Source: Candidatus Levyibacteriota bacterium
GTDB lineage: Bacteria; Patescibacteriota; Microgenomatia; Levybacterales; UBA12049
Direction of reading: 5' to 3'
DNA length: 64,000 nucleotides
Assembly: GCA_027459745.1 (NCBI GenBank)
Contig: DAIDHL010000003.1
Location: 129,125 to 193,124 of the forward strand
Part shown: positions 34,627 to 57,392 of the stretch, in pieces
Numbering within the stretch: the first letter of the stretch is position 1
How the letters are laid out: each line of letters opens with the position of its first letter
The notes under the pieces: generated by a model
Told to the model about the DNA's origin: nothing
The model's database searches: none
What the model saw: the letters and a program-made list of their open reading frames with translations, nothing else
Program-made: the position numbers and the translations under genes

Positions 34627-34633
34627 TCTAAAT

Positions 34634-36628: not shown

Positions 36629-36636
36629 ATAAGCAT

Positions 36637-37612: not shown

Positions 37613-37655
37613 TCTCCACCTGCTTAACTAATTAATTTAAAATATTACTAAAATC

Positions 37656-40376: not shown

Positions 40377-40805
40377 TTATTTTGCTGGGGGGATTTCTTC
40401 TATCCACAATCTTGTCTTATCATCTGGTCTGCCATGATTATAATTTACTGTTATTTCCTCATCTGTCTTGATATTTTTTATTGCAATAAATTCAATTATT
40501 TCTTCTTTAATTAATTTCCGATATGTAGCATTCGGTGAATATGAGTGATTGTACATTGAACCAAATCCCAAGCAGATCGCTCCTTTATGATACCTCTCAT
40601 CATTACCCCACATAAAATAATAATTATGTAATTTGGTTTTTCTGATTTCTAAAATATCCGGTTCATCCAATAAAATGATGGGACATCTTTCAATTATTTC
40701 CCCCATTTTAATATCTCTAGCGGTAAACACTCCCAATCCCGCATTCTCAATCTTTGATTGTGCAATATAAATATTATCTGCTGGAAGCAACTTTTTGCTT
40801 GGCAT
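40377..40805 (-). CDS. SET-domain protein (putative protein-lysine methyltransferase)
   Basis: 142 aa. GLGVFTARDIKMGEII, NHSYSPNA and EEITVNY match the SET GxG, NHSxxPN and ELxxxY motifs. Confidence 0.65.
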   Translation of the reverse strand: MPSKKLLPADNIYIAQSKIENAGLGVFTARDIKMGEIIERCPIILLDEPDILEIRKTKLHNYYFMWGNDERYHKGAICLGFGSMYNHSYSPNATYRKLIKEEIIEFIAIKNIKTDEEITVNYNHGRPDDKTRLWIEEIPPAK

Positions 40806-40809
40806 ATGT

Positions 40810-41235
40810 TTAATAAATTTTTCTTAAATCTCCATTTATAAATTCAACCCCAAATGCTAATAATTCCTCTTTATAGGTAGAATTTTCACCTATTAGGTTC
40901 CAAATATAAATCTTTAAACCTAAATAAAAAGCCAAACCTATTTCCATTAAAACATTTGCTCCAATATATCCGTTGATTCCATTCTTCTCCCCATTCACAA
41001 CTAAAATACTATCCCCTTCTGCAATTTTTTTAAAATTTGTTAAAATAAATTTACCTCTCTCTTTTGGTGTATAAACTCCTTTAAAATGACTTACTTCGAA
41101 ATCATTATTTTTTTTCATTACTTGAGTAGAAATCGGAATATTTACTTTAAAACTTTTTTCTTTTAATTTTTTTTCAATCTCAACTAATTCTTTATAACAA
41201 GACATGCTAGCACATAAAAAAATTGTTTTGTTCAT
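40810..41235 (-). CDS. Hypothetical protein (weak resemblance to nucleoside 2-deoxyribosyltransferase-like Rossmann proteins)
   Basis: 141 aa, by-eye resemblance only. Confidence 0.3.
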   Translation of the reverse strand: MNKTIFLCASMSCYKELVEIEKKLKEKSFKVNIPISTQVMKKNNDFEVSHFKGVYTPKERGKFILTNFKKIAEGDSILVVNGEKNGINGYIGANVLMEIGLAFYLGLKIYIWNLIGENSTYKEELLAFGVEFINGDLRKIY

Positions 41236-41308
41236 ACTTCTTGCATCCTAACAAAAAACACCAGCTTTCGCTAGTGCTTTTGTATAGCATTTCAGAAAAT
41301 TTTTTACC

Positions 41309-41814
41309 TTACTTTCCTGCTATATTTACCCTCCAGTGAATGCCGAATTTATCAGTCAACATACCAAAAGTATCTTCCCAAAATTGTTTGCCTAAAGGCA
41401 TATCAACTTTGCCTCCTTCAGCTAAAAGGAGGGCAGCATCTCTCTTTAATTTTCTGGCTCCCAAGGAGTCATCAGCTGGAAATAATTTCCATCTGGATCC
41501 GCAAAAGTAGCAATCCATGTATCGCCCTCACCCATTTGATATGGCTGTGCGATGACTTTTGCCCCGAGTCCCTTAATACGTTCAGCTTCCTCTTTCACAT
41601 TTTTTGTTTCAAAGTTGAACAATATACGCTCAGGTTGTGGATTTACACCTTTGATTTTATCGTGCGGTCCGATTCCCATAAATGTTTTACCTGCTACGAA
41701 ACCTTGAAAATCTCCATCCGACATATCCGGTTGTTTTTCAAATACTTTCCCGTAAAATTCAACCAATTGTTGTGGATTTTCTGATCCAATTAAAATTGAT
41801 CCAAAATTCAACAT
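41309..41814 (-). pseudogene. Frameshifted or truncated VOC/PhnB-like tandem-domain gene
   Basis: Two overlapping ORFs in different frames (41446..41814 and 41309..41518). The first is a complete VOC domain. The second is only the C-terminal end of a second VOC/PhnB-like domain (...FGIHWRVN). Confidence 0.4.
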
Positions 41815-41838
41815 AATTATTTTTCACCCCCTTTCATT

Positions 41839-42120
41839 TTAAATGTTAGACCTTTTTCTGTAAGTGTTTTTTATTGCAGATATTGAGTGTGGACCGAATC
41901 CATGTAATGCTAGTAACTCTTCTTCCGAAACGTTGTTTAGATCTTTCAGTTTGGTTATTCCGGAGTTTTGCAATGCCCTTGAAGCTGGTGTAGAAAGTTT
42001 AGAGAAATTAGTTTGTGTCTTATCTCTATAGCATTTTGGCCAGCAAATAGGACAAATTGGACAATCACTACTTTTGTTAAATTTATGACCACGATTACAC
42101 ATTTTTAATTTACTTTTCAT
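41839..42120 (-). CDS. Small zinc-ribbon plus helix-hairpin-helix protein
   Basis: 93 aa. CxxC...CPICPIC cluster. C-terminal HhH-like motif (LHGFGPHSISAI). Confidence 0.45.
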   Translation of the reverse strand: MKSKLKMCNRGHKFNKSSDCPICPICWPKCYRDKTQTNFSKLSTPASRALQNSGITKLKDLNNVSEEELLALHGFGPHSISAIKNTYRKRSNI

Positions 42121-42122
42121 AA

Positions 42123-43304
42123 TTAGTTGAAAGCCGATTCTTTTACACCTGGCTTAAATGCCCGAAAAGATAGTGCAAAACATATAACTGTCAACACCGC
42201 TCCTACAAAAAAAGTTAAGGGAATCTGAATTGTAGCGATAACCCCTCCTATAATCGGCCCAACGATCATACCCATACTCTGGTAAGAAGAATTTAAACCC
42301 ATAATCGAACCCTGCGATTTTTCATCTGTTTCCTGAGAGAGAATTGTGGGAATAAGCGTCTGCACAATACTATTAAATAAGCCTAGAACAAGTGCTATTA
42401 CTACAAAAATAATCAGGGTATGCGACAACCACATACCAGCCAAAGCCATGCCAGACAGCAAAATAGAATACTTGAAGGAATGCTCTATGCCGAATTTTTT
42501 GGAGAATAAAGATACTAAAAATGTTTGGGTTATTAAACCTACAATGCCAAATAAGGTAAAAATTAGGGCATTTTCCATCGGAGAAATTTTCAAGATATTA
42601 ACAGTAAATGGCTGAAAACCGTAGATAATCGCACAAGAAAAAGCCAACATAAAAATAAATGATATTAAAAATGTTACACCAACATTGGGATCAAATAGTG
42701 TATGCCATAATTTAGACAAATCAAACAATTTTCCTGATTGCACTTCCCCCATATGCTTGTTGGTTTCTGGTAGATATATGGCAGTCAAAATTACGGCAAT
42801 AGTGGTAATTATACCAGCTATGATAAAAGGTACTCCGGAACCAAAGCCTACAGTTAAGGCAGCAATTGCCGGTCCGAATATAAACCCGAAGTTAAAAGCT
42901 GCACCTATTAACCCAAAAGCCTGTGGACGTTCTTCAGGTTTGGTCGAGTCGGAAATAACAGCAAAAGCCACAGGTATATTCCCGGCTGTTAATCCATCCA
43001 ACATTCGTGCAAAAAACAGAAAAGCTGCGTTGGGAGCAAATGCTGTTAAGAAAAAGGAAATAGCAGTACCAATAATGGAAATCAGCAATAATGGCCGCCT
43101 GCCATATTTATCTGACATACGTCCAATAAGAGGTGTCGACAAAAACTGGCAAATCGAGTAGCTGGCAAACAAAAGTCCATTCTGAAAGTCACTCAATCCA
43201 TACTTCTTCGAATAGGCATACAAAATCGGAATGATGATTCCATATCCTAGCATATTGACTAAAACTATAAGGGCAATGATAGCGAAATTTCTATTTCTGA
43301 GCAT
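42123..43304 (-). CDS. MFS transporter (drug:H+ antiporter-like)
   Basis: 393 aa, 12 TM helices. MFS signature GRMSDKYGRRP between TM2 and TM3. Confidence 0.8.
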   Translation of the reverse strand: MLRNRNFAIIALIVLVNMLGYGIIIPILYAYSKKYGLSDFQNGLLFASYSICQFLSTPLIGRMSDKYGRRPLLLISIIGTAISFFLTAFAPNAAFLFFARMLDGLTAGNIPVAFAVISDSTKPEERPQAFGLIGAAFNFGFIFGPAIAALTVGFGSGVPFIIAGIITTIAVILTAIYLPETNKHMGEVQSGKLFDLSKLWHTLFDPNVGVTFLISFIFMLAFSCAIIYGFQPFTVNILKISPMENALIFTLFGIVGLITQTFLVSLFSKKFGIEHSFKYSILLSGMALAGMWLSHTLIIFVVIALVLGLFNSIVQTLIPTILSQETDEKSQGSIMGLNSSYQSMGMIVGPIIGGVIATIQIPLTFFVGAVLTVICFALSFRAFKPGVKESAFN

Positions 43305-43426
43305 GAGTTTTTATTTTAGTTAATAGTGACTCAAATCACAATAACAAGTATAACCATCAGCCCAAAAGGCTTAGTTTGACTAGATTTTCCTTCATGTTTT
43401 CACTAAGCCTTTTATCAAAATCTTTA

Positions 43427-43900
43427 TTAGTCTTTTTCCACAAATTTAACTAATTTGTCCAATTGCTGATTCCAGCCCATCTCCATACCTTGCAGTGGAC
43501 CTGCAGCTTCTGGTGTAGTTTTGGTGACTGAGATATGAATTGTTAATTTGGTCTTATCACCTTCTTGGACTAAATTAACTGTTACTAAATTCTCTAGAAC
43601 CGGCTCGTCATTTACGATCGCTTGTCCCGTAAACACCAATTTATTGGGAGCTTCTACTTCTTTCACTTCACCTTTCATTGGCCATCGCTGTCCTTTCATA
43701 GGCCCCAATTCTTCCCCCGCTAACATCACGATGTCTATTTTCCCCCCCGGCTTTACTTCAAATACGCAGGTTGGATTGGTAACACCGTTGGGTCCCCACC
43801 ATTGTTGGAGCAAGCTGGTGTCAGTCCAATATTTCCACACTTTTTGTATTGGAGCGTCAAAATTTCGGGTTAAAGTTAATTCTCTTTTTGCTTCTTGCAT
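43427..43900 (-). CDS. SRPBCC-superfamily protein (AHSA1-like), paralog 2
   Basis: 157 aa. RNFDAPIQKVWKYWTD ... WWGP is typical AHSA1. Co-oriented with the upstream ArsR gene. Confidence 0.65.
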   Translation of the reverse strand: MQEAKRELTLTRNFDAPIQKVWKYWTDTSLLQQWWGPNGVTNPTCVFEVKPGGKIDIVMLAGEELGPMKGQRWPMKGEVKEVEAPNKLVFTGQAIVNDEPVLENLVTVNLVQEGDKTKLTIHISVTKTTPEAAGPLQGMEMGWNQQLDKLVKFVEKD

Positions 43901-43920
43901 TATTTCACCCCCTTTCCTTA

Positions 43921-44250
43921 TTATTTGTCTTTTTCGGTTGCTAATAATTTATCTAATTTATCAAAGCTTTTTTCCCAATGTGTTTGGAACTGCTTCAACC
44001 AATTATCCAATTCGCTGATGCGCTCAGGATTTACCTTATATAACCGCTGCTGTGCTTTCTTCTCTACTCTTACTAAATCAGTTTCACGCAGAACTTTTAA
44101 ATGCTGGGAAACGGCTGGATGAGACATGCTAAATTCACCATAAATGTCTGTAGCTGACAACTGACCTTTATCCGACAGTAACTCCAAAATTTCTCGTCGT
44201 GTTGGCTCTGATAATGCATAAAATATTTTTGAAACCGAAAAACTATCCAT
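43921..44250 (-). CDS. ArsR/SmtB-family transcriptional regulator
   Basis: 109 aa. FYALSEPTRREILELL...SQHLKVL is an ArsR-type wHTH. Confidence 0.75.
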   Translation of the reverse strand: MDSFSVSKIFYALSEPTRREILELLSDKGQLSATDIYGEFSMSHPAVSQHLKVLRETDLVRVEKKAQQRLYKVNPERISELDNWLKQFQTHWEKSFDKLDKLLATEKDK

Positions 44251-44321
44251 AGTTATATATTAAAGTTTTGGCTTAATTAAGTCAATACTTAATAATATAT
44301 GCTTGAAGGTTTGAAAATTGT

Positions 44322-44858
44322 TTAATTTTCTGTAGCCAGAAGAATTTTTTGGGTGGTATGCCAAAAACGAGTGGTGGTCGCTACCCCGATTTTCTTTTCC
44401 ATCAGGCCATAAGAATTTGTAGGTCTACCGTTTTTTAAATGCCAAACCACAAACAGCTCCGTATCTGTCTTTGCCACTAATTTGTATCCTCCATCCGGGG
44501 TAGTAAAAGGCACTGGTAAATCTACTTTGGTTGGCTCTGCAAGAAATACGATAGATAAACGTATATCATCAGTTACCTTAACTTTGGCAAAAGGATCTAT
44601 GGACATAATTTTTTTTAATTGTTCTAAAGTCCTCAGAAACACCGGCACATTAAAACCTAACTCAGCTGCCAAATATTTTTGTATTTTTTGGCGTAATAAA
44701 CTTTGATCTTTTTCTTCTGACTCAAAAAATATATTTCCTGACTGAATAAATGAACGAACATTCTCTAGGTTCAAATTAGTAAACAAACCACGTAATTTGT
44801 CCATTTTCACATTATGACCACCTACATTTATTCCTCTGAGTAAAGCAATATAAATCAT
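44322..44858 (-). CDS. DUF1697-family protein
   Basis: 178 aa. N-terminal MIYIALLRGINVGGHNVKM is characteristic of DUF1697. Confidence 0.55.
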   Translation of the reverse strand: MIYIALLRGINVGGHNVKMDKLRGLFTNLNLENVRSFIQSGNIFFESEEKDQSLLRQKIQKYLAAELGFNVPVFLRTLEQLKKIMSIDPFAKVKVTDDIRLSIVFLAEPTKVDLPVPFTTPDGGYKLVAKTDTELFVVWHLKNGRPTNSYGLMEKKIGVATTTRFWHTTQKILLATEN

Positions 44859-44859
44859 A

Positions 44860-45936
44860 TTAATTTGTTATAATTTCGACTGGAAGGTTTATAAACTGTC
44901 CATATTTTTTTGCTGCTAACTGCAAGGCTTTGTTTTGCTCTTCAGTAATCTTAACCAATATCTTAAGCTTAATCACGACTTTCGTCGCTTGAATAACTCT
45001 TCTCCAACTTCCCGCCATTTTACCATTTATCAAAACTACACCCATTATCATTCCCGAACCAATATTCAAATATTTTACATGTTCATTGTCTAAAACGTCT
45101 AACCTATCTTTATAGGCAATAAAATATTCATCAAAACCTGGCAATAAATAAACTGAAGGTGAAAAACTTAGCTGTTGTGTGCTAGCAAAAAAATAATAAT
45201 CTTTGACCCCAATTTGTTGTTTATTTATTTTATTACCAAGTAAGTTTAGACCTTTTTGTGTCTCTACTTTCGTCAAGCCTGACCACCACACAAAATCACT
45301 AATCTGAGCAGGTCCATGACTTTGGAAATAACGTTTAATTAATTCGACTAATGCTTCCTCATGGGTTAATTTTTTATATTTCTTCACTCTGTCTTCCAAT
45401 AACATATATGTAAACTGTTTGCCTTTTCTCGGACCACTACAAATTAATCCTTCCAATTCAGCTTGCATAAGCACAAAAGCCAAACGAATATCTTGCGTAG
45501 GAATTTTTGCTTCTTTAAGATAAATATTTAATTCTTCACGTGTCAGTTGTTTGCCACCTTTTAATACTTGGTGAAGTATCTTATTACTTTTCTGAAAAAT
45601 CTCATTATCAAAACCTAATTTACGGTAATAGGAATTATTGAAAGCATGTACTCTGGCTGAGGTGAGATCTTGTAACCAGACAATATCTTCTGGGGTAACA
45701 AAATGCCAGGTTGGACGCATAGTGTGAGTACGTAAAATTAAACCTTCGTTAAAAGCTCTTTCAACTTGTGCATCGGTCTGTTCATGGGTACGTAGACTAA
45801 CTGCACACTTCGCAGCAGCAAAATCTTGTGCCTGCATAGCACCCAACCAATGAACTATTTCTTGTGGAGTACTAAAATTTGGGTTGATTAATTTCTGGTT
45901 AACTAATCTTAAGTTTATAACGTCTAAACTGTTCAT
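44860..45936 (-). CDS. Winged-helix DNA-binding protein, YcaQ/AlkZ-like (putative crosslink-repair DNA glycosylase family)
   Basis: 358 aa. Family resemblance by eye (HWLGAMQAQDF near N-terminus). Moderate support. Confidence 0.5.
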   Translation of the reverse strand: MNSLDVINLRLVNQKLINPNFSTPQEIVHWLGAMQAQDFAAAKCAVSLRTHEQTDAQVERAFNEGLILRTHTMRPTWHFVTPEDIVWLQDLTSARVHAFNNSYYRKLGFDNEIFQKSNKILHQVLKGGKQLTREELNIYLKEAKIPTQDIRLAFVLMQAELEGLICSGPRKGKQFTYMLLEDRVKKYKKLTHEEALVELIKRYFQSHGPAQISDFVWWSGLTKVETQKGLNLLGNKINKQQIGVKDYYFFASTQQLSFSPSVYLLPGFDEYFIAYKDRLDVLDNEHVKYLNIGSGMIMGVVLINGKMAGSWRRVIQATKVVIKLKILVKITEEQNKALQLAAKKYGQFINLPVEIITN

Positions 45937-45984: not shown

Positions 45985-46066
45985 GGCACCGAAAAAGTAA
46001 AAAGCACCAAATGTGCCGAAGGTTAATAACCTCCGGCACATTTGGGACATCACGAACCTTCGATGC
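45985..46066 (+). other. Candidate structured RNA (nested hairpins) in the divergent intergenic region upstream of glycerate kinase
   Basis: Outer stem GGCACCGAA (45985-45993) with TTCGaTGCC (46058-46066). Inner perfect 10-bp stem AAATGTGCCG / CGGCACATTT flanking a ttaataa loop (about 46008-46044). GC-rich relative to its surroundings. Confidence 0.35.
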
Positions 46067-46136: not shown

Positions 46137-47423
46137 ATGGCAAAATTTATTAAGAACTACGAGACTTTAGCTACGACTGAAGAAAGGAAATTAGTATTAG
46201 ATCTCATAGACACCGCAATTACGGCTATTCAACCACAAGAAGTCATAAATTCTCACTTTACAATTGTAGATGAAGTCCTGCACGTACAAGATCAACAATT
46301 TAATTTACACAATTTTAGTCGTATTTTTCTCATCGGTTTTGGTAAAGGTTCCGGCGAAATTTCTTTTCTAATAGAAAAAGTTTTAGGCGAGAAACTTACG
46401 ACAGGTTATGTAATCGACGCCAAGCAACAAACGTTTAATAAGGCCCAATTTACCTTAGGTACTCATCCCCTCCCTTCATTAGCCAACCTGGATTTCACAC
46501 AAAATGTTTTGGAACAACTTAGCGGCTTAACAGAAAGTGATTTGGTAATCATGGTAACGTGCGGCGGCGGCTCAGTAATGTTTGAGAAGCCACATAGTTT
46601 GAGTCTGGAAAAATTAATTGACTTTAATAAAGCTCTTTTACATGCCGGTGCCAATATCCACGATATGAATGTCATGCGCAAACACGTCTCCAAAGTTAAA
46701 GGCGGCGGACTGGCAGAACATTTATATCCTGCGACCGTAGTAAATCTGGTTTTCTCTGACGTGCCGGGAGATGATTTATCGGTTATTGCTTCCGGCCCAC
46801 TTATTAAAGATGAATCAACAGTCGGCGAAGCTTGGGATTTATATATAAAATTTAAAATTAACCAAACGATTAAATTAAAAGAGCGAGATTTTTTTGAAAC
46901 GCCTAAGGATGATAAGTTTTTTACCCATACACATAATATTTTGATGGATACGAATATGACCGCTATGAGCAAAATGCAAGATCTGGCCAAGCAACGCAAT
47001 ATAAATGTGCAAATTTATTCTAATTCTTTTCAGTCTGACGCCGACTCGGCTGGCAAAAAGCTTATAGATAAAACACCCGATAATACATTGCTGTTGGCGG
47101 GAGGAGAAACTACGGTAAAAGTAAGTGGCAAGGGTGGTGAAGGCGGCAGAAATCAGGAACTAGTCTTGGCTGCTCTACCCTATTTGGGAGACAAAATTAC
47201 TATCGCGGCTTTTGATTCAGACGGATGGGATAATTCACCTATCGCCGGTGCAATTGGTGATAAACAAACCTTAACCACAGCTAAAGAGAAGAATCTTGAC
47301 CCTCACACTTATTTAAAAGCGCACAATAGCTCTCCATTTTTCCGAGCTGTAAACGATGCCATCATTACAGATAAGCTTTCTTCCAACGTCTCCGATTTAA
47401 TGATAGTATATAAGAAAGCATAG
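46137..47423 (+). CDS. Glycerate kinase, MOFRL family (glycerate 2-kinase type)
   Basis: 428 aa. LLLAGGETTVKVSGKGGEGGRNQELVLAA matches the MOFRL GGETTV...GGRNQE core. Confidence 0.7.
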   Translation: MAKFIKNYETLATTEERKLVLDLIDTAITAIQPQEVINSHFTIVDEVLHVQDQQFNLHNFSRIFLIGFGKGSGEISFLIEKVLGEKLTTGYVIDAKQQTFNKAQFTLGTHPLPSLANLDFTQNVLEQLSGLTESDLVIMVTCGGGSVMFEKPHSLSLEKLIDFNKALLHAGANIHDMNVMRKHVSKVKGGGLAEHLYPATVVNLVFSDVPGDDLSVIASGPLIKDESTVGEAWDLYIKFKINQTIKLKERDFFETPKDDKFFTHTHNILMDTNMTAMSKMQDLAKQRNINVQIYSNSFQSDADSAGKKLIDKTPDNTLLLAGGETTVKVSGKGGEGGRNQELVLAALPYLGDKITIAAFDSDGWDNSPIAGAIGDKQTLTTAKEKNLDPHTYLKAHNSSPFFRAVNDAIITDKLSSNVSDLMIVYKKA

Positions 47424-47480
47424 ATAACATTGGAAAGAGGAATGATTTTTTCACTGTATTAAGCAATGTTATTCACGTCT

Positions 47481-47553
47481 TTGCGAGGAGCATAGCGACG
47501 AAGCAATCTAGATTGCTTCGCTCCATTTCATTTCGCTCGCAATGACAATCATC
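47481..47553. repeat. Repeat family A, copy 1: about 70-bp imperfect palindrome with perfect 22-bp palindrome CGAAGCAATCTAGATTGCTTCG, abutting the start of the transketolase N-subunit gene
   Basis: ttgcgaggagcatagcgacGAAGCAATCTAGATTGCTTCgctccatttcatttcgctcgcaatgacaatcatcta. The gene's ATG at 47555 lies in the element tail. Confidence 0.8.
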
Positions 47554-47554
47554 T

Positions 47555-48418
47555 ATGATTGCAGAGTTGAACGATTTACAATTAAAACATTTACAAGAAA
47601 AAGCTGTCGAGATGCGTGAGCATATTATTGAAATGCTACTGGAAGCCAAATCGGGACATTCGGCCGGTCCGTTGGGTATGGCCGATATTTTTACCGCCTT
47701 TTATTTCCATATTCTCAACCATGATCCACGCAACCCCGATTGGGATGACCGTGATCGTTTGGTTCTTTCCAATGGACATATATGCCCGGTACAATATGCT
47801 GCTCTGGCTATGTCGGGCTATTTCCCGATTGAAGAATTGAAAACTCTGCGCAAAATTAACTCTCGTTTGCAGGGACATCCTCACCGAGGAACATTACCCG
47901 GTATTGAGACCACATCGGGCCCTTTAGGTGAGGGACTTTCGCAAGCTATAGGTATGGCTTTAGCCCTCAAACTGGATAATAAAGTTGCTCATGTCTATTG
48001 TTTGGGCTCTGATGGTGAATTACAGGAAGGCAATCCTTGGGAAGCAGCAATGTTTGCGGGCAAAAATAGATTATCAAATCTAACCTTAGTAATCGATCGT
48101 AACAATATTCAGATTGATGGTTTTACAGAAGATGTCATGCCTATTGAACCCCTCAAAGATAAATTTGCTGCGTTTAACTGGCATGTGTTAGAAATTGATG
48201 GACATAATATGCAAATGTTAGTGGATGCTGTCAACGAAGCCAAAGCTATTCATCAACAGCCCACTGTGATTATCGCTCACACTATCCCTGGCAAAGGCGT
48301 CGACTTCATGGAAAACAAATTTGAATGGCACGGCATGCCGCCTGATAAAGATCAAGCCAAAAAAGCACTCGATGAATTAAGGACTTTACAAGGAAAGATA
48401 GAAAATGAAAGTCAGTAA
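47555..48418 (+). CDS. Transketolase, N-terminal (TPP-binding) subunit of a split transketolase
   Basis: 287 aa. SGHSAGPLG and GSDGELQEGNPWEA are the TPP-binding motifs of the transketolase N-terminal half. Confidence 0.85.
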   Translation: MIAELNDLQLKHLQEKAVEMREHIIEMLLEAKSGHSAGPLGMADIFTAFYFHILNHDPRNPDWDDRDRLVLSNGHICPVQYAALAMSGYFPIEELKTLRKINSRLQGHPHRGTLPGIETTSGPLGEGLSQAIGMALALKLDNKVAHVYCLGSDGELQEGNPWEAAMFAGKNRLSNLTLVIDRNNIQIDGFTEDVMPIEPLKDKFAAFNWHVLEIDGHNMQMLVDAVNEAKAIHQQPTVIIAHTIPGKGVDFMENKFEWHGMPPDKDQAKKALDELRTLQGKIENESQ

Positions 48419-48440
48419 GATAGTAAGATAAAATATAATA

Positions 48441-48545
48441 GCGAGGAATAATTTTTTCGCGGTAAACCTAGAAGGGATGAACAACCGGATAAGTTCAAAC
48501 CAAGATAGTCCGACGGGTGCACAAGAAAAAATTCGTTCCTAGCGA
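48441..48545 (+). repeat. Repeat family B, copy 1 (candidate cis-regulatory leader) between the transketolase N- and C-subunit genes
   Basis: Begins gcgaggaataatttttt. Shares the family core GTAAACCTAGnAGGGnTnAAnAACCGGATAAGTTCAAACCAAGATAGTCCGACGGGTGCACAAGAAAAAATT with the copies at 49556, 51519 and 53686. Ends about 12 nt before the transketolase C-subunit ATG. Confidence 0.8.
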
Positions 48546-48556
48546 CAAAGAAAAAT

Positions 48557-49549
48557 ATGTTAAATCCAAATTTAAAACTTAACGATAAAATGTTTGACCA
48601 AGATGCTAACAAAAAAGCTACGCGTGACGGCTTTGGCGAAGGTTTGGTAGAATTGGGCAATTCAAATCCCAATGTAGTGGTGCTCACAGCCGATTTATCT
48701 GACTCCACTCGTACCGATAAATTTGCTAAGGCACATCCTGAGAGATTTTTTGAAGTCGGAGTGGCTGAACAAAATATGGCTGCTATTGCTGCTGGCTTGG
48801 CCGAAGCTGGGAAAATAGCTTTCATCTCTTCTTACGCTACTTTCTCCCCTGGTAAAAACTGGGAAACAATTCGCACTACTGCTGTTTATAATCGAGCTAA
48901 CGTGAAAATTGCTGGCCACCACAGCGGAGTGATGACGGGACCTGATGGAGCAACTCATCAAGCCACCGAAGATATCGCAATCACCCGTTGCTGGCCGGAT
49001 ATCCAGATCTATGTCCCCTGTGACAGTGTTGAAGGTAAAAAAGCCACCCTCGCTAGTGCTAATATCCCCACTGCTGTCTATTTAAGATTTACCAGAGATA
49101 AATCAGCCGTCATGACTACAGAAGAAACATCTTTTGAGGTGGGTAAAATTCAGGACTTCTGGATTTCTGATAATCCTCAAGTAACCATTTTTGCTACCGG
49201 TTATTTACTTTATCAAGCTTTATTAGCAGCTAAGCAATTAGAAGAGGAAGGTATTCAAACCATAGTCGCTAACGTTTCAACTATCAAACCACTTGACGGC
49301 GAGGGCATTTTAAGATTAACTGATAAGACCCGTGCAGTCATTACAGTCGAAGATCACCAAATCATGGGCGGATTAGGCGGAGCAATTGCCGAATTTCTAG
49401 CTAAGAATCAGCCTTTGCCAATGGAGTTTATTGGTTTGCAAGATACTTTTGCACAGTCAGGAACACCGGATGAGTTGCTGGCTAAATATAAAATGGATGC
49501 ACCCGCCATCAAAGAAGCTGTTAAGAAGGTAATAGGAAGAAAAACCTAA
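48557..49549 (+). CDS. Transketolase, C-terminal (pyrimidine-binding/C-domain) subunit
   Basis: 330 aa. FEVGVAEQNMAAIAAGLA and the downstream transketolase C domain. Confidence 0.85.
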   Translation: MLNPNLKLNDKMFDQDANKKATRDGFGEGLVELGNSNPNVVVLTADLSDSTRTDKFAKAHPERFFEVGVAEQNMAAIAAGLAEAGKIAFISSYATFSPGKNWETIRTTAVYNRANVKIAGHHSGVMTGPDGATHQATEDIAITRCWPDIQIYVPCDSVEGKKATLASANIPTAVYLRFTRDKSAVMTTEETSFEVGKIQDFWISDNPQVTIFATGYLLYQALLAAKQLEEEGIQTIVANVSTIKPLDGEGILRLTDKTRAVITVEDHQIMGGLGGAIAEFLAKNQPLPMEFIGLQDTFAQSGTPDELLAKYKMDAPAIKEAVKKVIGRKT

Positions 49550-49555
49550 AACAAA

Positions 49556-49660
49556 GAGCGAGAAATGATTTTTCGCAGTAAACCTAGGAGGGATGAAAAA
49601 CCGGATAAGTTCAAACCAAGATAGTCCGACGGGTGCACAAGAAAAAATTATTTCAAGCGA
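49556..49660 (+). repeat. Repeat family B, copy 2, in the leader of the FAD-linked oxidase gene
   Basis: gcgagaaatgatttttcgcaGTAAACCTAGgAGGGATGAAaAACCGGATAAGTTCAAACCAAGATAGTCCGACGGGTGCACAAGAAAAAATT. Differs from copy 1 at only about 2 core positions. Confidence 0.8.
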
Positions 49661-49674
49661 AAATACAAAAATAT

Positions 49675-51330
49675 ATGAATGAACAACTTTTAAATGAACT
49701 AAAATCAATTATTAAAGGCGAAGTCCACACCGATGACGATACACTCGTCGAATACAGCCATTGTGCCTCTCTTTTTGAAATCAAACCCAAAGTAGTGGTT
49801 TTCCCTCGTGATGAAGAAGATGTAAAAAACTTGGTCAAATTTGTGGATAAATATAAAACGGAACATTCGGAACTATCTTTGACAGCCCGTTCGGCTGGAA
49901 CTGATATGGGTGGGGGGCCACTCAGTGAATCAATCGTAGTCGGATTTCAGAAGTTCTTTAATCATCTACCCACGGTAGTTGAGCAAACAGCTACTACTCA
50001 ACCCGGAGTTTTTTATCGCGATTTTGAAAAAGAAACACTCAAGCATGGTTTGATTTTCCCTTCTTATCCAGCATCGCGTGAACTCTGTGCCATGGGTGGC
50101 ATAGTCAACAATAATTCCGGTGGAGAAAAATCCTTACAATACGGCAAAACAGAAAGATATGTAGAAAGTCTGCAAGTTGTTTTATCCGATGGCAACCAAT
50201 ATGAATTCAAACCCTTAAATGAAGAAGAATTAAATAAAAAAATGGCCCAAAATGATTTCGAAGGAGAATTGTACAAAAAAATGTTTAATTTAATCAATGA
50301 TAATTATGACTTGTTACAGCAACATAAACCTAAAGTTTCTAAAAATTCTGCAGGATACTATTTGTGGAATGTTTATGATCGTGAGAAAAAAGTGTTCGAT
50401 CTATCCAAATTATTTGTCGGAGCACAAGGAACTTTGGGATTTTTGACCAGTGCGAACATAAAACTTGTTCCCGTCAAAAAGCATGCTGAGATGATGATTT
50501 TGTTTTTACACAACATCGATCATTTAGGAGAAATTATTAATCTGGTGTTGCCTTTGCAGCCAGATACATTTGAAACTTATGATGATAATACTCTTAAGCT
50601 TGCTCTCAAATTTTTCCCCGAATTTGCTAAATTCCTGGGAACCAAGGGTATTATTCAAACTGGTTTACAGTTTATTCCAGAATTTATGATGGTCTTGACC
50701 GGCGGCTTGCCCAAATTAATTTTGCAGATTGATTTCCAGTCTGATGATCGTGCACAACTGGACAAAGACATTGCGCAGTTAAAAGAAAAATTAAAACCTT
50801 TACATCCTGAAACTCGTATTGCCCACAATGAAGATCAGGAAAAGAAATATTGGATGATCAGACGTGAAAGTTTCAATTTGTTACGCAATAAAGTCAAAGA
50901 TATGCACACTGCTCCTTTTATCGATGATTTTGCTGTCGAGCCGAAATATCTGTCTGAATTTTTGCCTAAATTAAATGCCATTTTTGTCAAATATCCCAAA
51001 TTAATCTATACGGTTGCAGGTCATGTTGGAGATGGTAATTTCCACATCATTCCTTTGATGAAAATTGAAGATCCCAAACAGCGCGAAATCATCCCGGTAT
51101 TAGGCAAAGAGGTTTATGACCTGGTGTTGCAATATCATGGAACTATTACCGCCGAACACAATGACGGGATTATCAGAACTCCCTATCTGAAACAAATGTA
51201 TGGTGAAGAAGTATATAAATTATTTGAGCAAACGAAGCAGATTTTTGATCCGCAGAATATATTTAACCCCGGTAAAAAAGTGGGAGGAACTATGGATTAT
51301 GCCATGTCTCACATCCGCCAAAGCTGGTAA
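49675..51330 (+). CDS. FAD-linked oxidase (GlcD / D-lactate dehydrogenase family: FAD_binding_4 plus FAD-oxidase C domain)
   Basis: The ORF track starts at a GTG at 49633 that lies inside repeat B2. The first ATG is 49675 (MNEQLL...), taken as the start. PCMH-type FAD-binding domain (PRDEEDVKNLVKFV ... ARSAGTDMGGGPL). Confidence 0.75.
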   Translation: MNEQLLNELKSIIKGEVHTDDDTLVEYSHCASLFEIKPKVVVFPRDEEDVKNLVKFVDKYKTEHSELSLTARSAGTDMGGGPLSESIVVGFQKFFNHLPTVVEQTATTQPGVFYRDFEKETLKHGLIFPSYPASRELCAMGGIVNNNSGGEKSLQYGKTERYVESLQVVLSDGNQYEFKPLNEEELNKKMAQNDFEGELYKKMFNLINDNYDLLQQHKPKVSKNSAGYYLWNVYDREKKVFDLSKLFVGAQGTLGFLTSANIKLVPVKKHAEMMILFLHNIDHLGEIINLVLPLQPDTFETYDDNTLKLALKFFPEFAKFLGTKGIIQTGLQFIPEFMMVLTGGLPKLILQIDFQSDDRAQLDKDIAQLKEKLKPLHPETRIAHNEDQEKKYWMIRRESFNLLRNKVKDMHTAPFIDDFAVEPKYLSEFLPKLNAIFVKYPKLIYTVAGHVGDGNFHIIPLMKIEDPKQREIIPVLGKEVYDLVLQYHGTITAEHNDGIIRTPYLKQMYGEEVYKLFEQTKQIFDPQNIFNPGKKVGGTMDYAMSHIRQSW

Positions 51331-51334
51331 AGGT

Positions 51335-51420
51335 AATTTAAAATTTAGAATTATTCCTGATTCTCTAAAATTTGATTCTGGAGTCACTACGTTCCGAATG
51401 ACTATGAAGTCTCGTCATTG
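51335..51420. repeat. Repeat family C, copy 2 (degenerate) 3' of the FAD-oxidase gene
   Basis: ttattcctgattctctaaaatttGATTCTGGAGTCACTACGttccgaatgactatgaagtc. Shares GATTCTGGAGTCACTACG with copy 3. Confidence 0.55.
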
Positions 51421-51437
51421 CAAGGGTTTGAAAAACC

Positions 51438-51495
51438 CAAAGCAATCTAGATTGCAACGTCGTTCGCTTCGCTCACTCCTAGCAATGACAATCTA
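51438..51495. repeat. Repeat family A, copy 2 (degenerate; left arm replaced by a gggtttgaaaaaccc mini-hairpin)
   Basis: aAGCAATCTAGATTGCaacgtcgttcgcttcgctcactcctagcaatgacaatcta. Confidence 0.6.
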
Positions 51496-51518
51496 AATTT
51501 TTAAAAAAGGCCAAGGAA

Positions 51519-51610
51519 CGTGTTTTTTTCGCAGTAAACCTAGTAGGGTTTAACAACCGGATAAGTTCAAACCAAGATAGTCCGACGGGTATACAAGAAA
51601 AAAAATATTC
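51519..51610 (+). repeat. Repeat family B, copy 3 (orphan: no downstream plus-strand gene; lies 3' of the convergent kinase/aldolase gene)
   Basis: tgtttttttcgcaGTAAACCTAGtAGGGtTtAACAACCGGATAAGTTCAAACCAAGATAGTCCGACGGGTatACAAGAAAAAAAAT. Confidence 0.8.
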
Positions 51611-51618
51611 TCGGCAAA

Positions 51619-53541
51619 TTATTTGTCAGTGAACACCTGATAATAGTGGAAGAAATTTGTGGAGATTTTTTCAATTGTTTCTTCTCTACTCGCTTTTTTA
51701 TTATAGAAATCTGAGATCGCATCCCAAAAAATTGTTCTTCCCACGGCAAACCCAATCACTCCCGGCACTTGCGAACCTAATTTAATCCAGTTATCCACTG
51801 TAGCATCATCCGCCCCTCTTCCTAATACCACAATCCCCACACCTTGCCTCTCATCAATCTGCGCTTGATGCACACAATTTTTATATGCTCCCTCTGATTC
51901 CATCCCTTCCAGCTTCCACACATCCGGCTCTACGCCGGCATCTTGTAATTCTTTGATCATTTGCACGGTCAAACCGGGACGAATTGTTTTATCATATTCT
52001 TTCTTATCCCCATTGGCTTTGGCTAACTGTTCCTCATTTGCCCCCACCAACACTTCTAACAAAAATTTATGTCCATGTTCATGACAATAATTGCTAATTT
52101 TTTTCAAAGTAACTTGTTGTCGTTGACGCGAATCGGCTGCATCGGCTGGATTATATTTAATTAATACTTTAGCAAATGTAGGTTTATACTTTTCAATATG
52201 TTCGGCAAAATGTTCTCCGTATTCAAAAGCAAATTCTTCCTGACCACTTTTTTCTACTGTCAAGATTGTGACAAAACCCTGCTGCTTGGCAGTCTTTAGT
52301 ACTTCATCGCCATATTCTTCGTCAACCAAAATACCGGCCATTTCTTTGGGAAGGCCTTTATTTATGGATGATTGGAAACCAGCAAAAATAATATTTTTGA
52401 AATCTCTAATTGCTTCTTTTTGTTCCTCTGTCATTTCCTCCATCTTCACATTAAACAAATGCTGAGCAAACGTATTGCGATGATCAAATGGCAAAATATA
52501 TAAATTTTTATCGTAACCGAGTTTTAATTTGGTCATAGAAAATCCACCCTCTGCTGCTTTTTTATCCGCTAATTTACTCACTATTTTATCTTGCGTTAAC
52601 AATCCAACTTGTGCGCCCACTTGACCGATCACAGATATGGCATTCTGTGTCCCCCATTCCATGGCATCATCTATCGAGCGATTCATTTGCCAAGCCGCTA
52701 AAAATCCGGCTGTATAGGCATCACCGGCACCTGTTTTCTCGACAATTTCTACTTCTGGCGTGAAATGATAATAAAAACTGCCTTCATCATCCCGGACATA
52801 TGAACCATGTACCCCATTAGTTATAACACAAACTTTAACTCCTAACTCCGCAAGTTTGTCCATTAATCCTTGAATATATTCTTTACTATCATTAGCTTGT
52901 TGTGGTTCTTGACCAAACAATAATTGCTCGGCTTCTTCTTTATTCACAAAAAGTATTTGTGTGCGCTTTAAAACTTCTTTGCTTAACTCCATGTCTTCAT
53001 GTAGTTGTAACGACCCAGGATTAAAAGCGAGAGGGATTTGTGTCTTATCAATAAAATCAATCGTTTGTTGATAAACTTTTTTCCATTCATTACCCAAACT
53101 CGTCAGAAAAATTAACTTGGCTTTTTTCATTTTGCTAAAGTTGAATGCATGTTCTCTCACTGGTCTATCAGTAAACAAAGTCCGATCTCCTTGATAATTC
53201 ATACCTACGGTTAAAGAAGAAGATTTAGTAGGAGTTTTAATCAATAAACTTTCATCTATTTGCTCTTTGTTTAATCCATCCAAAATCAAGCCAGATAAAC
53301 TATCATCGCCCAACTCAGCGGCTAGAGCTGTACTCACACCCAAACGACATAAACCAACGGCCACATTGGCTGCATTACCACCAACCGAAGTGGCACAATG
53401 ATCCACATCAATTTTCTCACCATATTTGAAGCAAAATTCACGTGTACCTGAATTCAAACGAATTTCTTTATTTTCAGGCAAAAAACTTAAAAAAATATCT
53501 ACTGTGGTATCACCTATAGTCACTACCTCAAACTCGGGCAT
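51619..53541 (-). CDS. Bifunctional PfkB-family sugar kinase fused to DUF2090 class-I-aldolase-like domain (IolC/IolJ-like kinase/aldolase fusion)
   Basis: 640 aa. PfkB signatures GGNAANVAVGL and GAGDAYTAGFLAAW in the N-terminal half. C-terminal roughly 300 aa has TIM-barrel aldolase-like character, as in the DUF2090 domain fused to the kinase in some IolC annotations. Confidence 0.6.
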   Translation of the reverse strand: MPEFEVVTIGDTTVDIFLSFLPENKEIRLNSGTREFCFKYGEKIDVDHCATSVGGNAANVAVGLCRLGVSTALAAELGDDSLSGLILDGLNKEQIDESLLIKTPTKSSSLTVGMNYQGDRTLFTDRPVREHAFNFSKMKKAKLIFLTSLGNEWKKVYQQTIDFIDKTQIPLAFNPGSLQLHEDMELSKEVLKRTQILFVNKEEAEQLLFGQEPQQANDSKEYIQGLMDKLAELGVKVCVITNGVHGSYVRDDEGSFYYHFTPEVEIVEKTGAGDAYTAGFLAAWQMNRSIDDAMEWGTQNAISVIGQVGAQVGLLTQDKIVSKLADKKAAEGGFSMTKLKLGYDKNLYILPFDHRNTFAQHLFNVKMEEMTEEQKEAIRDFKNIIFAGFQSSINKGLPKEMAGILVDEEYGDEVLKTAKQQGFVTILTVEKSGQEEFAFEYGEHFAEHIEKYKPTFAKVLIKYNPADAADSRQRQQVTLKKISNYCHEHGHKFLLEVLVGANEEQLAKANGDKKEYDKTIRPGLTVQMIKELQDAGVEPDVWKLEGMESEGAYKNCVHQAQIDERQGVGIVVLGRGADDATVDNWIKLGSQVPGVIGFAVGRTIFWDAISDFYNKKASREETIEKISTNFFHYYQVFTDK

Positions 53542-53586
53542 AGATTTATCATAAAGAATTTTTGCCGGTGCTACAAGTACTATCGT

Positions 53587-53660
53587 AATTGCGAGCGAAA
53601 TGAAATGTAACGAAGCAATCTAGATTGCTTCGTCGCTACGCTCCTCGCAATAACAATTAT
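53587..53660. repeat. Repeat family A, copy 3, inverted relative to copy 1; contains perfect 24-bp palindrome ACGAAGCAATCTAGATTGCTTCGT
   Basis: attgcgagcgaaatgaaatgtaACGAAGCAATCTAGATTGCTTCGTcgctacgctcctcgcaataacaattatcta. The reverse complement of copy 1's 60-bp hairpin part matches this copy at about 57 of 60 positions by my hand alignment. The 3' tail (caat[g/a]acaat[c/t]atcta) is in the same orientation in both. Confidence 0.75.
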
Positions 53661-53685
53661 CTATTTATCCTTTCCTCTGATAACT

Positions 53686-53785
53686 AGCGAGAAATATTTT
53701 TTAGCTGTAAACCTAGAAGGGTTTAACAACCAGATAAGATCAAACCAAGATAGTCCGACAGATGCACAAGAAAAAATTGTTTCAA
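53686..53785 (+). repeat. Repeat family B, copy 4, in the ndh leader
   Basis: gcgagaaatattttttagctGTAAACCTAGAAGGGtTtAACAACCaGATAAGaTCAAACCAAGATAGTCCGACaGaTGCACAAGAAAAAATT. ATG of ndh about 55 nt downstream. Confidence 0.8.
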
Positions 53786-53840
53786 GCAATAAAGCAGAGA
53801 TTGTATTACCGAGAGAATACTAGTAACATAATTAGAGTCA

Positions 53841-55058
53841 ATGGAAAACAAACTTAACATCGTGGTTCTTGGTGGTGGATTCGCAGGCGTAGCGGCTATC
53901 AAAGAATTACTCAAATACCAATCAGAAATTAAAGCTAACATTACTCTAGTCGATCGCAATAACTATCATCTATTTACTCCCTCCTTGTATGAGGTAGCCA
54001 CTTCAGAAGAACCCATGAAAAATATTGCCATACCCTTCGTAGAAATCTTTGGCCAAAAAATTAATTATTTAACTGGCAGCATTGAAAAAATTGATCAAGC
54101 TAATCATAGCATTCAAATTAATCAACAAACTATAAATTATGATTATTTAATTGTTTGTCTGGGCAGTGAACCAGCTTATTACCATATCCCTGGACTGCAA
54201 GAACATAGTTTGGCTCTCAAATCTTTACAGGAAGCCGTTGATATAAAAGAAAAAATTAAGTCAGCCTGTTGTAAAGAAAATGAATGCCACAAAAAAGCGC
54301 AGATCATCGTGGGAGGAGGCGGTTTTGCCGGCACTGAACTGGCAGCTGAATTACTTACTTATAAAGATCGTCTGGCCACACAAAATAAATTGGATAAAGA
54401 TTGTCTGGAAGTCACCATTATTCAAGGCTCAGATCGGCTATTAAAGGAGTTAGATAATCATGTTTCTGATCTGGCCAGTAAAAGACTAGCTACTCCCATG
54501 GTACATTTGGCTTTCGGTGGTCATATCAAAGAAGTAACTGACACAAATGTAGTGACTGATGATGGAAAAACTTATAATTATGACGTTTTATTGTGGACCG
54601 GCGGAGTGAAAGCTAATTCGTTAGTGGAAAAAAATGGTTTTGAGGTTAATAAACGTGGACAGATTAATGTTAACAATTTCCTGCAGACTAAAGATGCAAA
54701 AATCTTTGCGGCGGGAGATATTGCTGGATATATAGATACTAAAACCCAAAGTCCTGTCCCTAATGTTGCCCAAGTAGCCGAAGATCAAGGCAGGATTGCG
54801 GCCTTTAATGTTTACAATTTAATCACTAAGAAAACTTTATTGGAGTATAAATTTAGACATTGGGGCTATGTCGTACCACTAAAAGGTAGATTTGCAGCCG
54901 CAGAATTAGAAGGCAATTTACATTTTGATGGATTTTTAGGTTGGGTCTTACAACAACTCGTTTTTCTCTACTATTTATTAGGCATTGTTAGTATCTTGAA
55001 AGCCTTTAAAAGATGGGATGAAGTTCTGATGGATTATGATAAAAATATTTCCAATTAG
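53841..55058 (+). CDS. ndh: Type II NADH:quinone oxidoreductase (NDH-2)
   Basis: 405 aa. Two GxGxxG dinucleotide folds (VVLGGGFAGV, VGGGGFAGTELAAEL). NNYHLFTPSLYEVAT matches the NDH-2 quinone-site motif. C-terminal membrane-anchoring helix. Confidence 0.75.
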   Translation: MENKLNIVVLGGGFAGVAAIKELLKYQSEIKANITLVDRNNYHLFTPSLYEVATSEEPMKNIAIPFVEIFGQKINYLTGSIEKIDQANHSIQINQQTINYDYLIVCLGSEPAYYHIPGLQEHSLALKSLQEAVDIKEKIKSACCKENECHKKAQIIVGGGGFAGTELAAELLTYKDRLATQNKLDKDCLEVTIIQGSDRLLKELDNHVSDLASKRLATPMVHLAFGGHIKEVTDTNVVTDDGKTYNYDVLLWTGGVKANSLVEKNGFEVNKRGQINVNNFLQTKDAKIFAAGDIAGYIDTKTQSPVPNVAQVAEDQGRIAAFNVYNLITKKTLLEYKFRHWGYVVPLKGRFAAAELEGNLHFDGFLGWVLQQLVFLYYLLGIVSILKAFKRWDEVLMDYDKNISN

Positions 55059-56828: not shown

Positions 56829-57311
56829 TTAGTTATCTAAAAGACTACGCAGACTGACCATGATCCTTCCATTCTGCTGATAAATCACTTCAAATTCTCC
56901 ATGTTCCTTCTCAATCCTTTCAATATATTTTTTATTCTTATTATCTTTAAATATCTCTTCCAACGCATCTCTGGCGTGTTCAAAAATTAAAATTTCTATC
57001 GAAATATGTTCTGCTCTAGCTCTTTCATGCAAGTTCCTGACTATCAACTCATTCATGACAATCTTTTTCTCCAATTCATGAATATCAAAAATCTCGTTTG
57101 TACCCTTAAGCACGTAATAAATCTTAACCGGAACCATTATTTCATAAAAAGTATCCATATTGACTTTCATAAAGGGTATTTTAGCAAGAATTGTCAAAAT
57201 GACAAAGAGTAAATAAAAATCCAGGTACTTAATATTCTTTAAATACCCCTCTCCTTTTAGGAGAGGTCCTGGGTGAGGTTTGCTAAAATCTAAAAAATAC
57301 TTTAAAAACAA
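56829..57311 (-). CDS. Hypothetical membrane-anchored protein (possibly LemA-like partner of DUF2207)
   Basis: 160 aa, one TM then a charged helical domain. LemA assignment rests on context only. Confidence 0.35.
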   Translation of the reverse strand: MFLKYFLDFSKPHPGPLLKGEGYLKNIKYLDFYLLFVILTILAKIPFMKVNMDTFYEIMVPVKIYYVLKGTNEIFDIHELEKKIVMNELIVRNLHERARAEHISIEILIFEHARDALEEIFKDNKNKKYIERIEKEHGEFEVIYQQNGRIMVSLRSLLDN

Positions 57312-57392
57312 ACCTCATCCTATCCTTCTCCTAATAGGAGAAGGGATAATATGCAACAATTATTTGAAATTTATTATTTGATTTTTGGAATT

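Follow-up and report, generated by a model that had tools for sequence, protein, structure and literature searches.

The subject of this analysis is a palindromic repeat, here called A, which occurs three times in a conserved carbohydrate gene cluster of a Candidatus Levyibacteriota bacterium (assembly GCA_027459745.1, contig DAIDHL010000003.1, positions 129,125 to 193,124; this stretch of 64,000 nt is referred to as the window, and positions are counted from its first letter). The cluster comprises genes for a glycerate kinase, the N and C subunits of a transketolase (TK_N and TK_C), a FAD-linked oxidase, a PfkB-DUF2090 fusion protein and a flavoprotein resembling NADH dehydrogenase (Table 1), which had been assigned correctly in a preliminary description of the sequence. 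Copy 1 of A lies 53 nt past the stop codon of the glycerate kinase gene and 8 nt ahead of the ATG of TK_N, copy 2 is located between the convergent ends of the oxidase and PfkB-DUF2090 genes, and copy 3 between divergent genes, 43 nt upstream of the ATG of PfkB-DUF2090 and 186 nt upstream of that of ndh. Together with four copies of a second repeat, B, they fall into six consecutive intergenic spacers (47400-53800), and neither repeat is present in the other approximately 58 kb. Local copying, relaxed constraint and selection to uncouple the operon are possible causes of this clustering. Otherwise the window has ordinary chromosomal content: its 64 kb encode neither a transposase nor a recombinase, and ARAGORN detected no tRNA or tmRNA in them. 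The best homologues of the oxidase carry the names Patescibacteria, Saccharimonadales or Daviesbacteria.

Table 1. Features of the carbohydrate gene cluster and its repeats (positions in the window)
Feature	Position	Strand	Remark
DUF4147/MOFRL glycerate kinase gene	46137-47423	+	
A copy 1	47476-47547	+	72 nt; read from the sequence and its conserved terminal tags
Perfect CTAG-centred palindrome of copy 1	47499-47520	strandless	22 bp; formed by the abutting tails of both hairpin units
Flank right of copy 1	47548-47556	+	ATCATCTAT; direct match with the flank of copy 3; overlaps the TK_N start
Transketolase N subunit gene (TK_N)	47555-48418	+	
B, first copy	48440-48531	+	
Transketolase C subunit gene (TK_C)	48557-49549	+	
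B, second copy	49557-49647	+	
FAD-linked oxidase gene	49675-51330	+	true ATG at 49675
Separate hairpin unit, similar to repetitive extragenic palindromes (REPs)	51374-51402	-	GTCATTCGGAACGTAGTGACTCCAGAATC on the minus strand; abuts copy 2
A copy 2	51413-51490	+	degenerate; 78 nt; read from the sequence and its terminal tags
B, third copy	51511-51605	+	
PfkB-DUF2090 fusion gene	51619-53541	-	open reading frame (ORF) of 640 aa
A copy 3	53584-53655	-	72 nt; read from the sequence and its terminal tags
Perfect palindrome of copy 3	53610-53633	strandless	24 bp
Flank right of copy 3	53656-53664	+	ATTATCTAT; direct match with the flank of copy 1
B, fourth copy	53686-53776	+	
Type-II NADH dehydrogenase-like flavoprotein gene (ndh)	53841-55058	+	

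The centre of A is a perfect palindrome, the 22-mer CGAAGCAATCTAGATTGCTTCG, which occurs exactly at 47499-47520 and 53611-53632 and with three mismatches at 51438-51459, with no match expected by chance (100 shuffles of the window). Around this core, copies 1 and 3 are mutually inverted and 93% complementary over 69 nt. Their 48-nt interiors agree at 45 of 48 positions as reverse complements but at only 15 of 48 when compared directly, whereas the outer arms match at 21 of 24 positions in direct and at 19 of 24 in inverted comparison. Both the exact palindrome and the reverse-complementary hairpin portions had been described before and are borne out here. Copy 1 is composed of a CGTC tag, the outer arm TTTGCGAG, the long-unit arm GAGCATAGCGACGAA, the core, a second arm, the outer arm CTCGCAAT and GACA. 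Copy 2 consists of CGTCATTGCAAG, the local hairpin GGGTTTGAAAAACCC, the core with its three mismatches, an arm and CTAGCAATGACA, and its interior has the orientation of that of copy 3; the degenerate third copy reported previously is real, but its left limit lies approximately 25 nt farther left, at 51413 instead of 51438. The tags of the three copies are CGTC, CGTC and CGTA, their G+C content is 44-49% compared to 36.5% in the whole window, and neither a direct repeat nor a target-site duplication is present at their ends. The arms common to copies 1 and 3 are found in none of the other 55 copies of the family presented below; we therefore regard these two copies as recent copies of each other that arose within this lineage.

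To the right of copies 1 and 3, a short flank is retained in direct orientation (AATCATCTAT versus AATTATCTAT, 9/10 identical), with P = 2.5e-4 for a match of at least 8/9 among random 9-mers of the window. The preliminary description had seen here a longer fixed 3' tail, part of which, CAATGAC/CAATAAC, belongs to the outer palindrome arm and is therefore present on both sides, outside the truly direct tail. That the start codon of TK_N falls into the tail of copy 1 was stated correctly, the A of its ATG being position 47555.

The comparison with related genomes points to A and B as lineage-specific insertions. Between positions 34172 and 51331, the window is collinear with the closest relative found, L051, whose FAD-linked oxidase is 91% identical; this stretch extends right across copy 1. 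According to the gene calls of L051, the glycerate kinase gene and those for TK_N, TK_C and the oxidase either overlap or are separated by 8-10 nt, while the corresponding spacers of the window measure 131, 138 and 125 nt and contain copy 1 of A and two copies of B. Five further relatives with 68-81% identity (L052, L054, L060, L061 and L062) have kept the same cluster in a tightly packed form, and neither A nor B was found at the cluster junctions of any of the six. In L054, convergent DUF2090 and PfkB genes also follow the oxidase gene; as a side observation, the two domains are encoded by one ORF in the window and by two adjacent genes in L054 (11668-13546).

These data bear on the proposal that copies 1 and 3 are the terminal inverted repeats of a 6-kb non-autonomous mobile unit with the transketolase, FAD-oxidase and kinase/aldolase genes, which was derived from the inverted, highly complementary copies bracketing these genes. 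However, the glycerate kinase gene to the left of copy 1 belongs to the same tight cluster in the six relatives, all of which lack A. Copy 1 therefore lies inside an operon, and the mobile unit is refuted by the orthologous loci together with the lack of target-site duplications. The collinearity of L051 across copy 1, the third copy inside the block, the lack of a transposase gene in the 64 kb and the solitary occurrence of A in other genomes add to this, so that we regard a mobile unit as virtually untenable.

The element is widely distributed. A gapped pattern of TTGCGAG, GCAATCTAGATTGC and CTCGCAA, with which a collection of species-representative genomes was searched, matched 50 contigs from about ten phyla, the loci having 36-61% G+C. 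Elements of this CTAG type have the architecture YGTC-ATTGCGAG...GCAATCTAGATTGC...CTCGCAAT-GACR and were present in several classes of Patescibacteria, in Micavibrio, Pseudobdellovibrionaceae, Planctomycetota including Brocadiales, Omnitrophota, Chloroflexia, Spirochaetales/Treponema, Peptococcales, Thermodesulfobacteriota, Sphingomonas and Methylotenera. Several metagenome-assembled genomes (MAGs) were matched three to four times each, and away from the window the element is a solitary unit of 50-70 nt. BLAST against plasmids detected the termini and half of the core in cultured organisms, namely at no fewer than 40 places on one replicon of Novosphingobium resinovorum and, furthermore, in N. 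aromaticivorans (pNL2), Methylosinus trichosporium OB3b, Methylocystis, Methylobacterium, Legionella lytica, Halomonas and the cyanobacterium Aulosira. The elements of Novosphingobium, N. aromaticivorans pNL2, Methylosinus, Methylobacterium, Legionella lytica and Aulosira are of a type with a spacer between the units; in high-GC relatives, the two halves are set apart by a variable spacer of 15-30 nt (GCAATCCAG...CTGGATTGC). This spacer type was also matched by a general pattern in 115 contigs of a viral collection, mostly in alphaproteobacterial gene transfer agent or prophage clusters, and the strict CTAG-type pattern had no match in the viral contigs. A search of the literature for sequence strings of the element and for peptides that it would encode returned only coincidences with primers.

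Some loci show particular arrangements. In L012 (2113-2194) and L043 (3979-4044), a CTAG-type element has its centre interrupted by 11-26 additional nt, an arrangement that connects the abutting form with the spacer-containing one. The viral-collection contig L140 carries three tandem spacer-type elements at 3052-3440 with a spacing of approximately 157 nt. In one Saccharibacteria MAG (L045, 3176-3570, and L047, 3882-4078), identical repeats of 105 nt on the left and 79 nt on the right flank A-type elements that differ in their interiors and have their units in opposite order, and in L019 (6660-6749) and L047 the element is found at the centre of a longer perfect palindrome. This suggests either insertion into the centres of hairpins or turnover of the interior at a fixed site.

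Each half of the element is a hairpin unit with the order YGTC, ATTGC, GA(G), small distal stem-loop, (GA)CGNN, GCAAT and CTA. Its stem comprises the five Watson-Crick pairs of ATTGC/GCAAT, followed by G/A mismatches and a distal stem of 2-9 bp. The short form of the unit reads ATTGC-GA-GC-NNA-GC-GA-A-GCAAT; in the long form, the distal stem differs among copies with the pairing being kept. Since the halves abut in the CTAG variant, their tails CTA and TAG fuse into the CTAG-centred palindrome. Of 51 copies, 26 have TGTC and 19 have CGTC as the left tag, 25 end on the right in GACG and 18 in GACA, and both outer ends are tagged in all 57 CTAG-type and 89 spacer-type elements. GTCATTGCGAG and CTCGCAATGAC were counted 60 and 56 times, respectively, in 483 kb of loci and are almost always paired. 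The sequence past the tag is unconserved and shows no target-site duplication (51-57 copies), with palindromy beyond the tag at chance level save for a few copies (Watson-Crick pairs in 14/51 at position -6/+6). The ends of the variable segments form two or more terminal Watson-Crick pairs in 41 of 50 distinct long arms compared to 10% of shuffles, and three or more pairs in 28% compared to 1.9%. This anchored test of end-pairing is more informative than the minimum free energy of the isolated long arms, whose z-scores are weak (mean -0.54). The internal arms vary by compensatory substitution, the 11-nt termini and the core being conserved across phyla. Copies 1 and 3 also fold as a whole into one hairpin of -26 to -30 kcal/mol on either strand (z -2.9 to -3.8), the RNA of copy 1 having -27.8 kcal/mol (z -3.2). 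Rfam 15 gave no match in the window at the gathering score, and in 47300-53950 only chance-level matches with E values of at least 1.1.

With regard to genomic context, 56 of 57 copies are intergenic, 38 of them between co-directional, 8 between convergent and 3 between divergent genes. Most copies follow stop codons, the median distances being 17.5 nt for the stop codon upstream and 48.5 nt for the start codon downstream. The 97 proteins flanking CTAG-type elements belong to 149 Pfam families, each of which was seen at most twice, and no gene family is enriched among them. A transposase was not encoded by any of the 97 and 150 ORFs next to CTAG-type and spacer-type elements, respectively, a search that covered these neighbours and not whole genomes. 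Orientation relative to transcription is not significantly biased, neither for the short-to-long unit order (23:14) nor for the G.U-capable strand (11:17, p=0.34). The lack of an enriched family and the orientation unrelated to transcription argue against a dedicated operator and against a strand-specific RNA gene, and context and orientation fit a DNA repeat that is dispersed and in most cases co-transcribed.

Among the roles considered in the preliminary description is that of a dedicated operator of this locus, to which a dimeric transcription factor would bind. The perfect palindrome of 22-24 bp, the position of copy 3 in a divergent promoter region and that of copy 1 just upstream of a start codon would suit this role, but the identical core and arms recur in about ten phyla beside all those Pfam families, only 3 of 49 scorable copies lie between divergent genes, copy 2 is placed between convergent gene ends, and the relatives run the operon without A. 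A dedicated operator is therefore highly improbable. In favour of intrinsic (rho-independent) termination, the hairpins are strong and G+C-rich in an A+T-rich genome, and the inner hairpin of copy 3 is picked up by a terminator scan of the minus strand. However, no T-run follows copies 1 or 2, and in 51 copies T predominates in the 5' flank and A in the 3' flank, the reverse of what a terminator would show. Moreover, terminator-like matches in the region do not outnumber those in shuffles, and copy 1 lies between genes that are translationally coupled in the relatives. It is thus extremely improbable that the hairpins act as terminators.

The match to the published text description supports the assignment of A as a REP-like palindromic repeat of the CGTC-tagged superfamily. 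Repeats of this superfamily carry a CGTC tag (variants TGTC and CCTC) at one end of the unit, an 8-9 bp stem whose first two positions are complementary A/T, a loop of 4-5 nt and an unpaired 3-nt tail with the consensus CCA. They are mostly arranged as head-to-head dimers with the tags outside, lie between unidirectional and convergent ORFs near the upstream one, and have no dedicated transposase (Di Nocera, De Gregorio & Rocco 2013, BMC Genomics 14:522, PMC3733652). A shares the terminal CGTC/TGTC tag, and its stem begins with AT (ATTGC...) in line with the A/T rule. Its 3-nt tail is CTA, and CCA in the relatives from Novosphingobium, Methylosinus and viral contigs (GCAATCCAG...). The units of A stand head-to-head with the tags outside, the element is found mostly between unidirectional or convergent ORFs near the upstream one, and no transposase flanked by A was detected among the 97 + 150 neighbouring ORFs or in the window. 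CGTC repeats have been reported from hosts of five phyla including Micavibrio, sphingomonads, Spirochaetes, Rickettsia (RPE-4/RPE-6) and Neisseria (dRS3), with CGTC-2 as the only family in N. aromaticivorans (PMC3733652). The first three of these host groups also harbour A, and the sequence family is present on N. aromaticivorans pNL2. In addition, the ATGAC motif, a hallmark of RPE-4/6/7 (PMC3767692), is the arm-plus-tag complement of A. In contrast to the published repeats, the host of A in the window belongs to the Patescibacteria, outside the five phyla named, and the units of A abut without a spacer, with their tails fused into the CTAG palindrome.

Other repeat families are less similar. 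The GTAG-type REPs and bacterial interspersed mosaic elements of Enterobacteria and Pseudomonas are likewise short extragenic hairpin repeats, often in inverted pairs and after stop codons, which are believed to function as hairpins in mRNA and to be mobile in the form of single-stranded DNA. They are, however, mobilised by REP-associated tyrosine transposases (RAYT, TnpA-REP) of the HUH type, and the tag of A is YGTC and not GTAG. A RAYT/Y1 transposase flanked by repeats was found neither in the window nor next to A copies, and the literature contains none for CGTC repeats. Miniature inverted-repeat transposable elements such as Correia/NEMIS of Neisseria, RUP of pneumococci and ERIC of enterobacteria are small non-autonomous palindromic insertions in intergenic regions that are co-transcribed and fold into hairpins, as A does. 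In contrast to these, A has only 50-78 nt, which is shorter than typical, lacks a target-site duplication and similarity to known ends of insertion sequences, and its interior arms vary by compensatory change and not by simple decay.

Taken together, we hypothesize that A is the local lineage of a cosmopolitan REP-type palindromic repeat, non-autonomous and largely selfish, that was inserted between the genes of a conserved operon, and assign a probability of roughly 0.78 to this reading. Its basis is the spread across phyla, the intergenic placement after stop codons, the absence from the junctions of relatives and the lack of a neighbouring transposase. Within this Patescibacteria lineage, A would have been copied in either orientation into three intergenic spacers of the carbohydrate cluster, possibly through an enzyme, encoded elsewhere or no longer present, that acted in trans on a folded single strand of the element. 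After insertion it would be transcribed as part of the operon mRNA and form a stable hairpin in either orientation. This hairpin would uncouple the translation of neighbouring genes and could be a barrier to 3' exonucleases or a target of RNases. The element was presumably tolerated where it landed between genes. As a consequence, three junctions that are translationally coupled in the relatives would have been opened by the insertions, a strong hairpin would end 8 nt ahead of the TK_N start codon, and transcripts across the copies are predicted to carry a stable stem-loop.

Several points weigh against this REP-type origin. No mobilising enzyme has been identified for A, and none is known for CGTC repeats. 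Three A and four B copies in six consecutive spacers and none in the other 58 kb are not what simple random insertion predicts, and the direct match of the flanks of the oppositely oriented copies 1 and 3 is not predicted either. The unit, with its five Watson-Crick pairs, G/A mismatches and variable distal hairpin, also does not obviously correspond to a plain stem of 8-9 bp with a 4-5 nt loop. Finally, A is probably a relative of CGTC-2, because the family is found in N. aromaticivorans, from which only CGTC-2 has been reported, but this placement was inferred from the text description and not from a consensus sequence.

It is conceivable that the copies, although REPs by origin, have been domesticated and retained as RNA hairpins that would give the parts of the polycistronic mRNA different stabilities or rates of decay. 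Whichever way A is oriented, its folds are stable (-26 to -30 kcal/mol, z about -3 to -3.8), the site past a stop codon is the one at which REPs have been proposed to act on mRNA (PMC3733652), and seven repeats are clustered in one operon. On the other hand, six relatives do without them, the G.U-capable strand is not biased (11/28, p=0.34), copy 2 is degenerating, and copy 3 is located in a divergent region and not in a 3' untranslated region. We therefore consider domestication rather unlikely. Of the REP-like mRNA-stability hairpins put forward in the preliminary description, the REP-like identity is supported here, an effect on mRNA stability being putative.

The reverse-complementary interiors of copies 1 and 3 next to direct arms and a direct flank remain an oddity. 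A similar target may have been struck twice in opposite orientations, or else template switching or a nick-and-copy process may have turned the interior around between its inverted arms, and two copies alone cannot choose between these options. An invertible (flip/flop) regulatory switch had also been suggested, in which the interior would invert beside the fixed tail and thereby alter the expression of the adjacent gene. The 45/48 match of the interiors as reverse complements, the better match of the outer arms in direct (21/24) than in inverted comparison (19/24) and the direct match of the right flank (9/10, P about 2.5e-4) would agree with such a switch. However, neither an invertase nor a recombinase is encoded in the window, the 48-nt interior is devoid of promoter-like sites, and the region as a whole has no more promoter-like matches than its shuffled versions. 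The comparison covers two sites and not two states of one, and the orientation of the family is unrelated to transcription (23:14 and 11:17), as expected for insertion either way. A regulatory switch is thus very unlikely, although the direct tail is statistically real.

A mechanism in which the interior flips relative to arms and flank, with YGTC as the nick site of a widespread single-strand nuclease and the hairpin then being copied or resolved, appears unlikely. If true, it would explain the reverse-complement interiors with direct arms and tail in copies 1 and 3, the local accumulation of copies in one operon, and how an element of approximately 60 nt with identical termini can persist and spread without a dedicated transposase in ten or more phyla, among them the Patescibacteria with their reduced genomes. 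The inverted terminal repeats of adeno-associated virus, a parvovirus, occur in flip and flop forms and are built of an outer stem with two small palindromes inside it and of a D sequence that is fixed. By analogy, A may be viewed as an outer stem around asymmetric small hairpins whose order is inverted between copies, beside an unpaired flank that is fixed. In contrast to the viral repeats, A is chromosomal, without a replication role or a known nicking enzyme, and its flip is inferred from two sites and not from two states of one site.

A is a real and non-random sequence feature, but one of a known kind of repeat, and no locus-specific regulatory or mobile structure. The palindromes at this locus should be taken neither for regulatory logic nor for the boundaries of a mobile island; the A copies are dispersed-repeat insertions that break up an operon translationally coupled in the relatives. 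The CGTC-type REP superfamily would thereby be extended to Patescibacteria and several other phyla. Given the wide distribution of A without a known mobilising enzyme, the question raised in 2013 of how such repeats are mobilised or maintained now applies to a wider range of hosts. The residual interest lies in this conservation across phyla and in the possible flip of the interior. Furthermore, A-type repeats yield spurious ORFs and contig breaks in MAGs, and their recognition is useful for annotation.

B, the second repeat of the cluster, is present in four direct copies of approximately 92 nt with a nearly invariant 70-nt core (GTAAACCTAG...CAAACCAAGATAGTCCGAC...CAAGAAAAAA), in front of which stands a small hairpin (GCGAGAAA/TTTTTCGC). 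The ATGs of TK_C and the FAD-linked oxidase gene follow 25-27 nt after the end of a copy and that of ndh 64 nt after it, and one copy lies 13 nt from the stop of the convergent PfkB-DUF2090 gene. The fold of the B consensus is weak (-9.4 kcal/mol). No relatives of B were found in Rfam, the fetched loci, viral contigs, JGI metagenomes or plasmids, apart from one chance match of a 20-mer in a high-GC JGI contig.

The window contains further palindromes. Small (CGTC)ATTCTGG-loop-CCAGAAT hairpins, single or paired, are located at 21785-21808 (minus strand, CGTCATTCTGGCTTGTCCAGAATCAA), 31538-31580, 51374-51402 (minus strand) and 61637-61703, and look like canonical single CGTC-type REP units; the one next to copy 2 of A shares 87% identity with 61666-61695 over 30 nt. 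Another large and imperfect palindrome at 57246-57345 (CCCCTCTCCTTTTAGGAGAGGTCCTGGGTGAGG...) has the motif CCTCTCC..GGAGAGG..GGGTGAGG, which was present in more than 120 viral-collection contigs among the matches listed, and the palindrome therefore represents another cosmopolitan family of short repeats. A near-perfect hairpin of 19 bp (CCAAATGTGCCGAAGGTTA/TAACCTCCGGCACATTTGG) occupies 46007-46045 in the divergent spacer upstream of the glycerate kinase gene, and a 9-bp inverted repeat (ATAACATTG...CAATGTTAT) is found at 47424-47473, between the stop codon of this gene and copy 1.

Directly left of the metabolic cluster, the window contains approximately 4.9 kb (40776-45702) where L051 has only about 0.6 kb (5842-6475). 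The genes of this extra segment encode an MFS transporter, an AHSA1/SRPBCC protein, a DUF1697 protein and an AlkZ-like DNA glycosylase. An operon for a haem-copper quinol/cytochrome oxidase (COX2, COX1, COX3 and a UbiA-type haem O synthase) at 33694-38510 is conserved in L051, and the host genome is Patescibacteria-like. Three RibD_C paralogues are located near this operon, at 31625-32152, 38831-39409 and 39764-40324.

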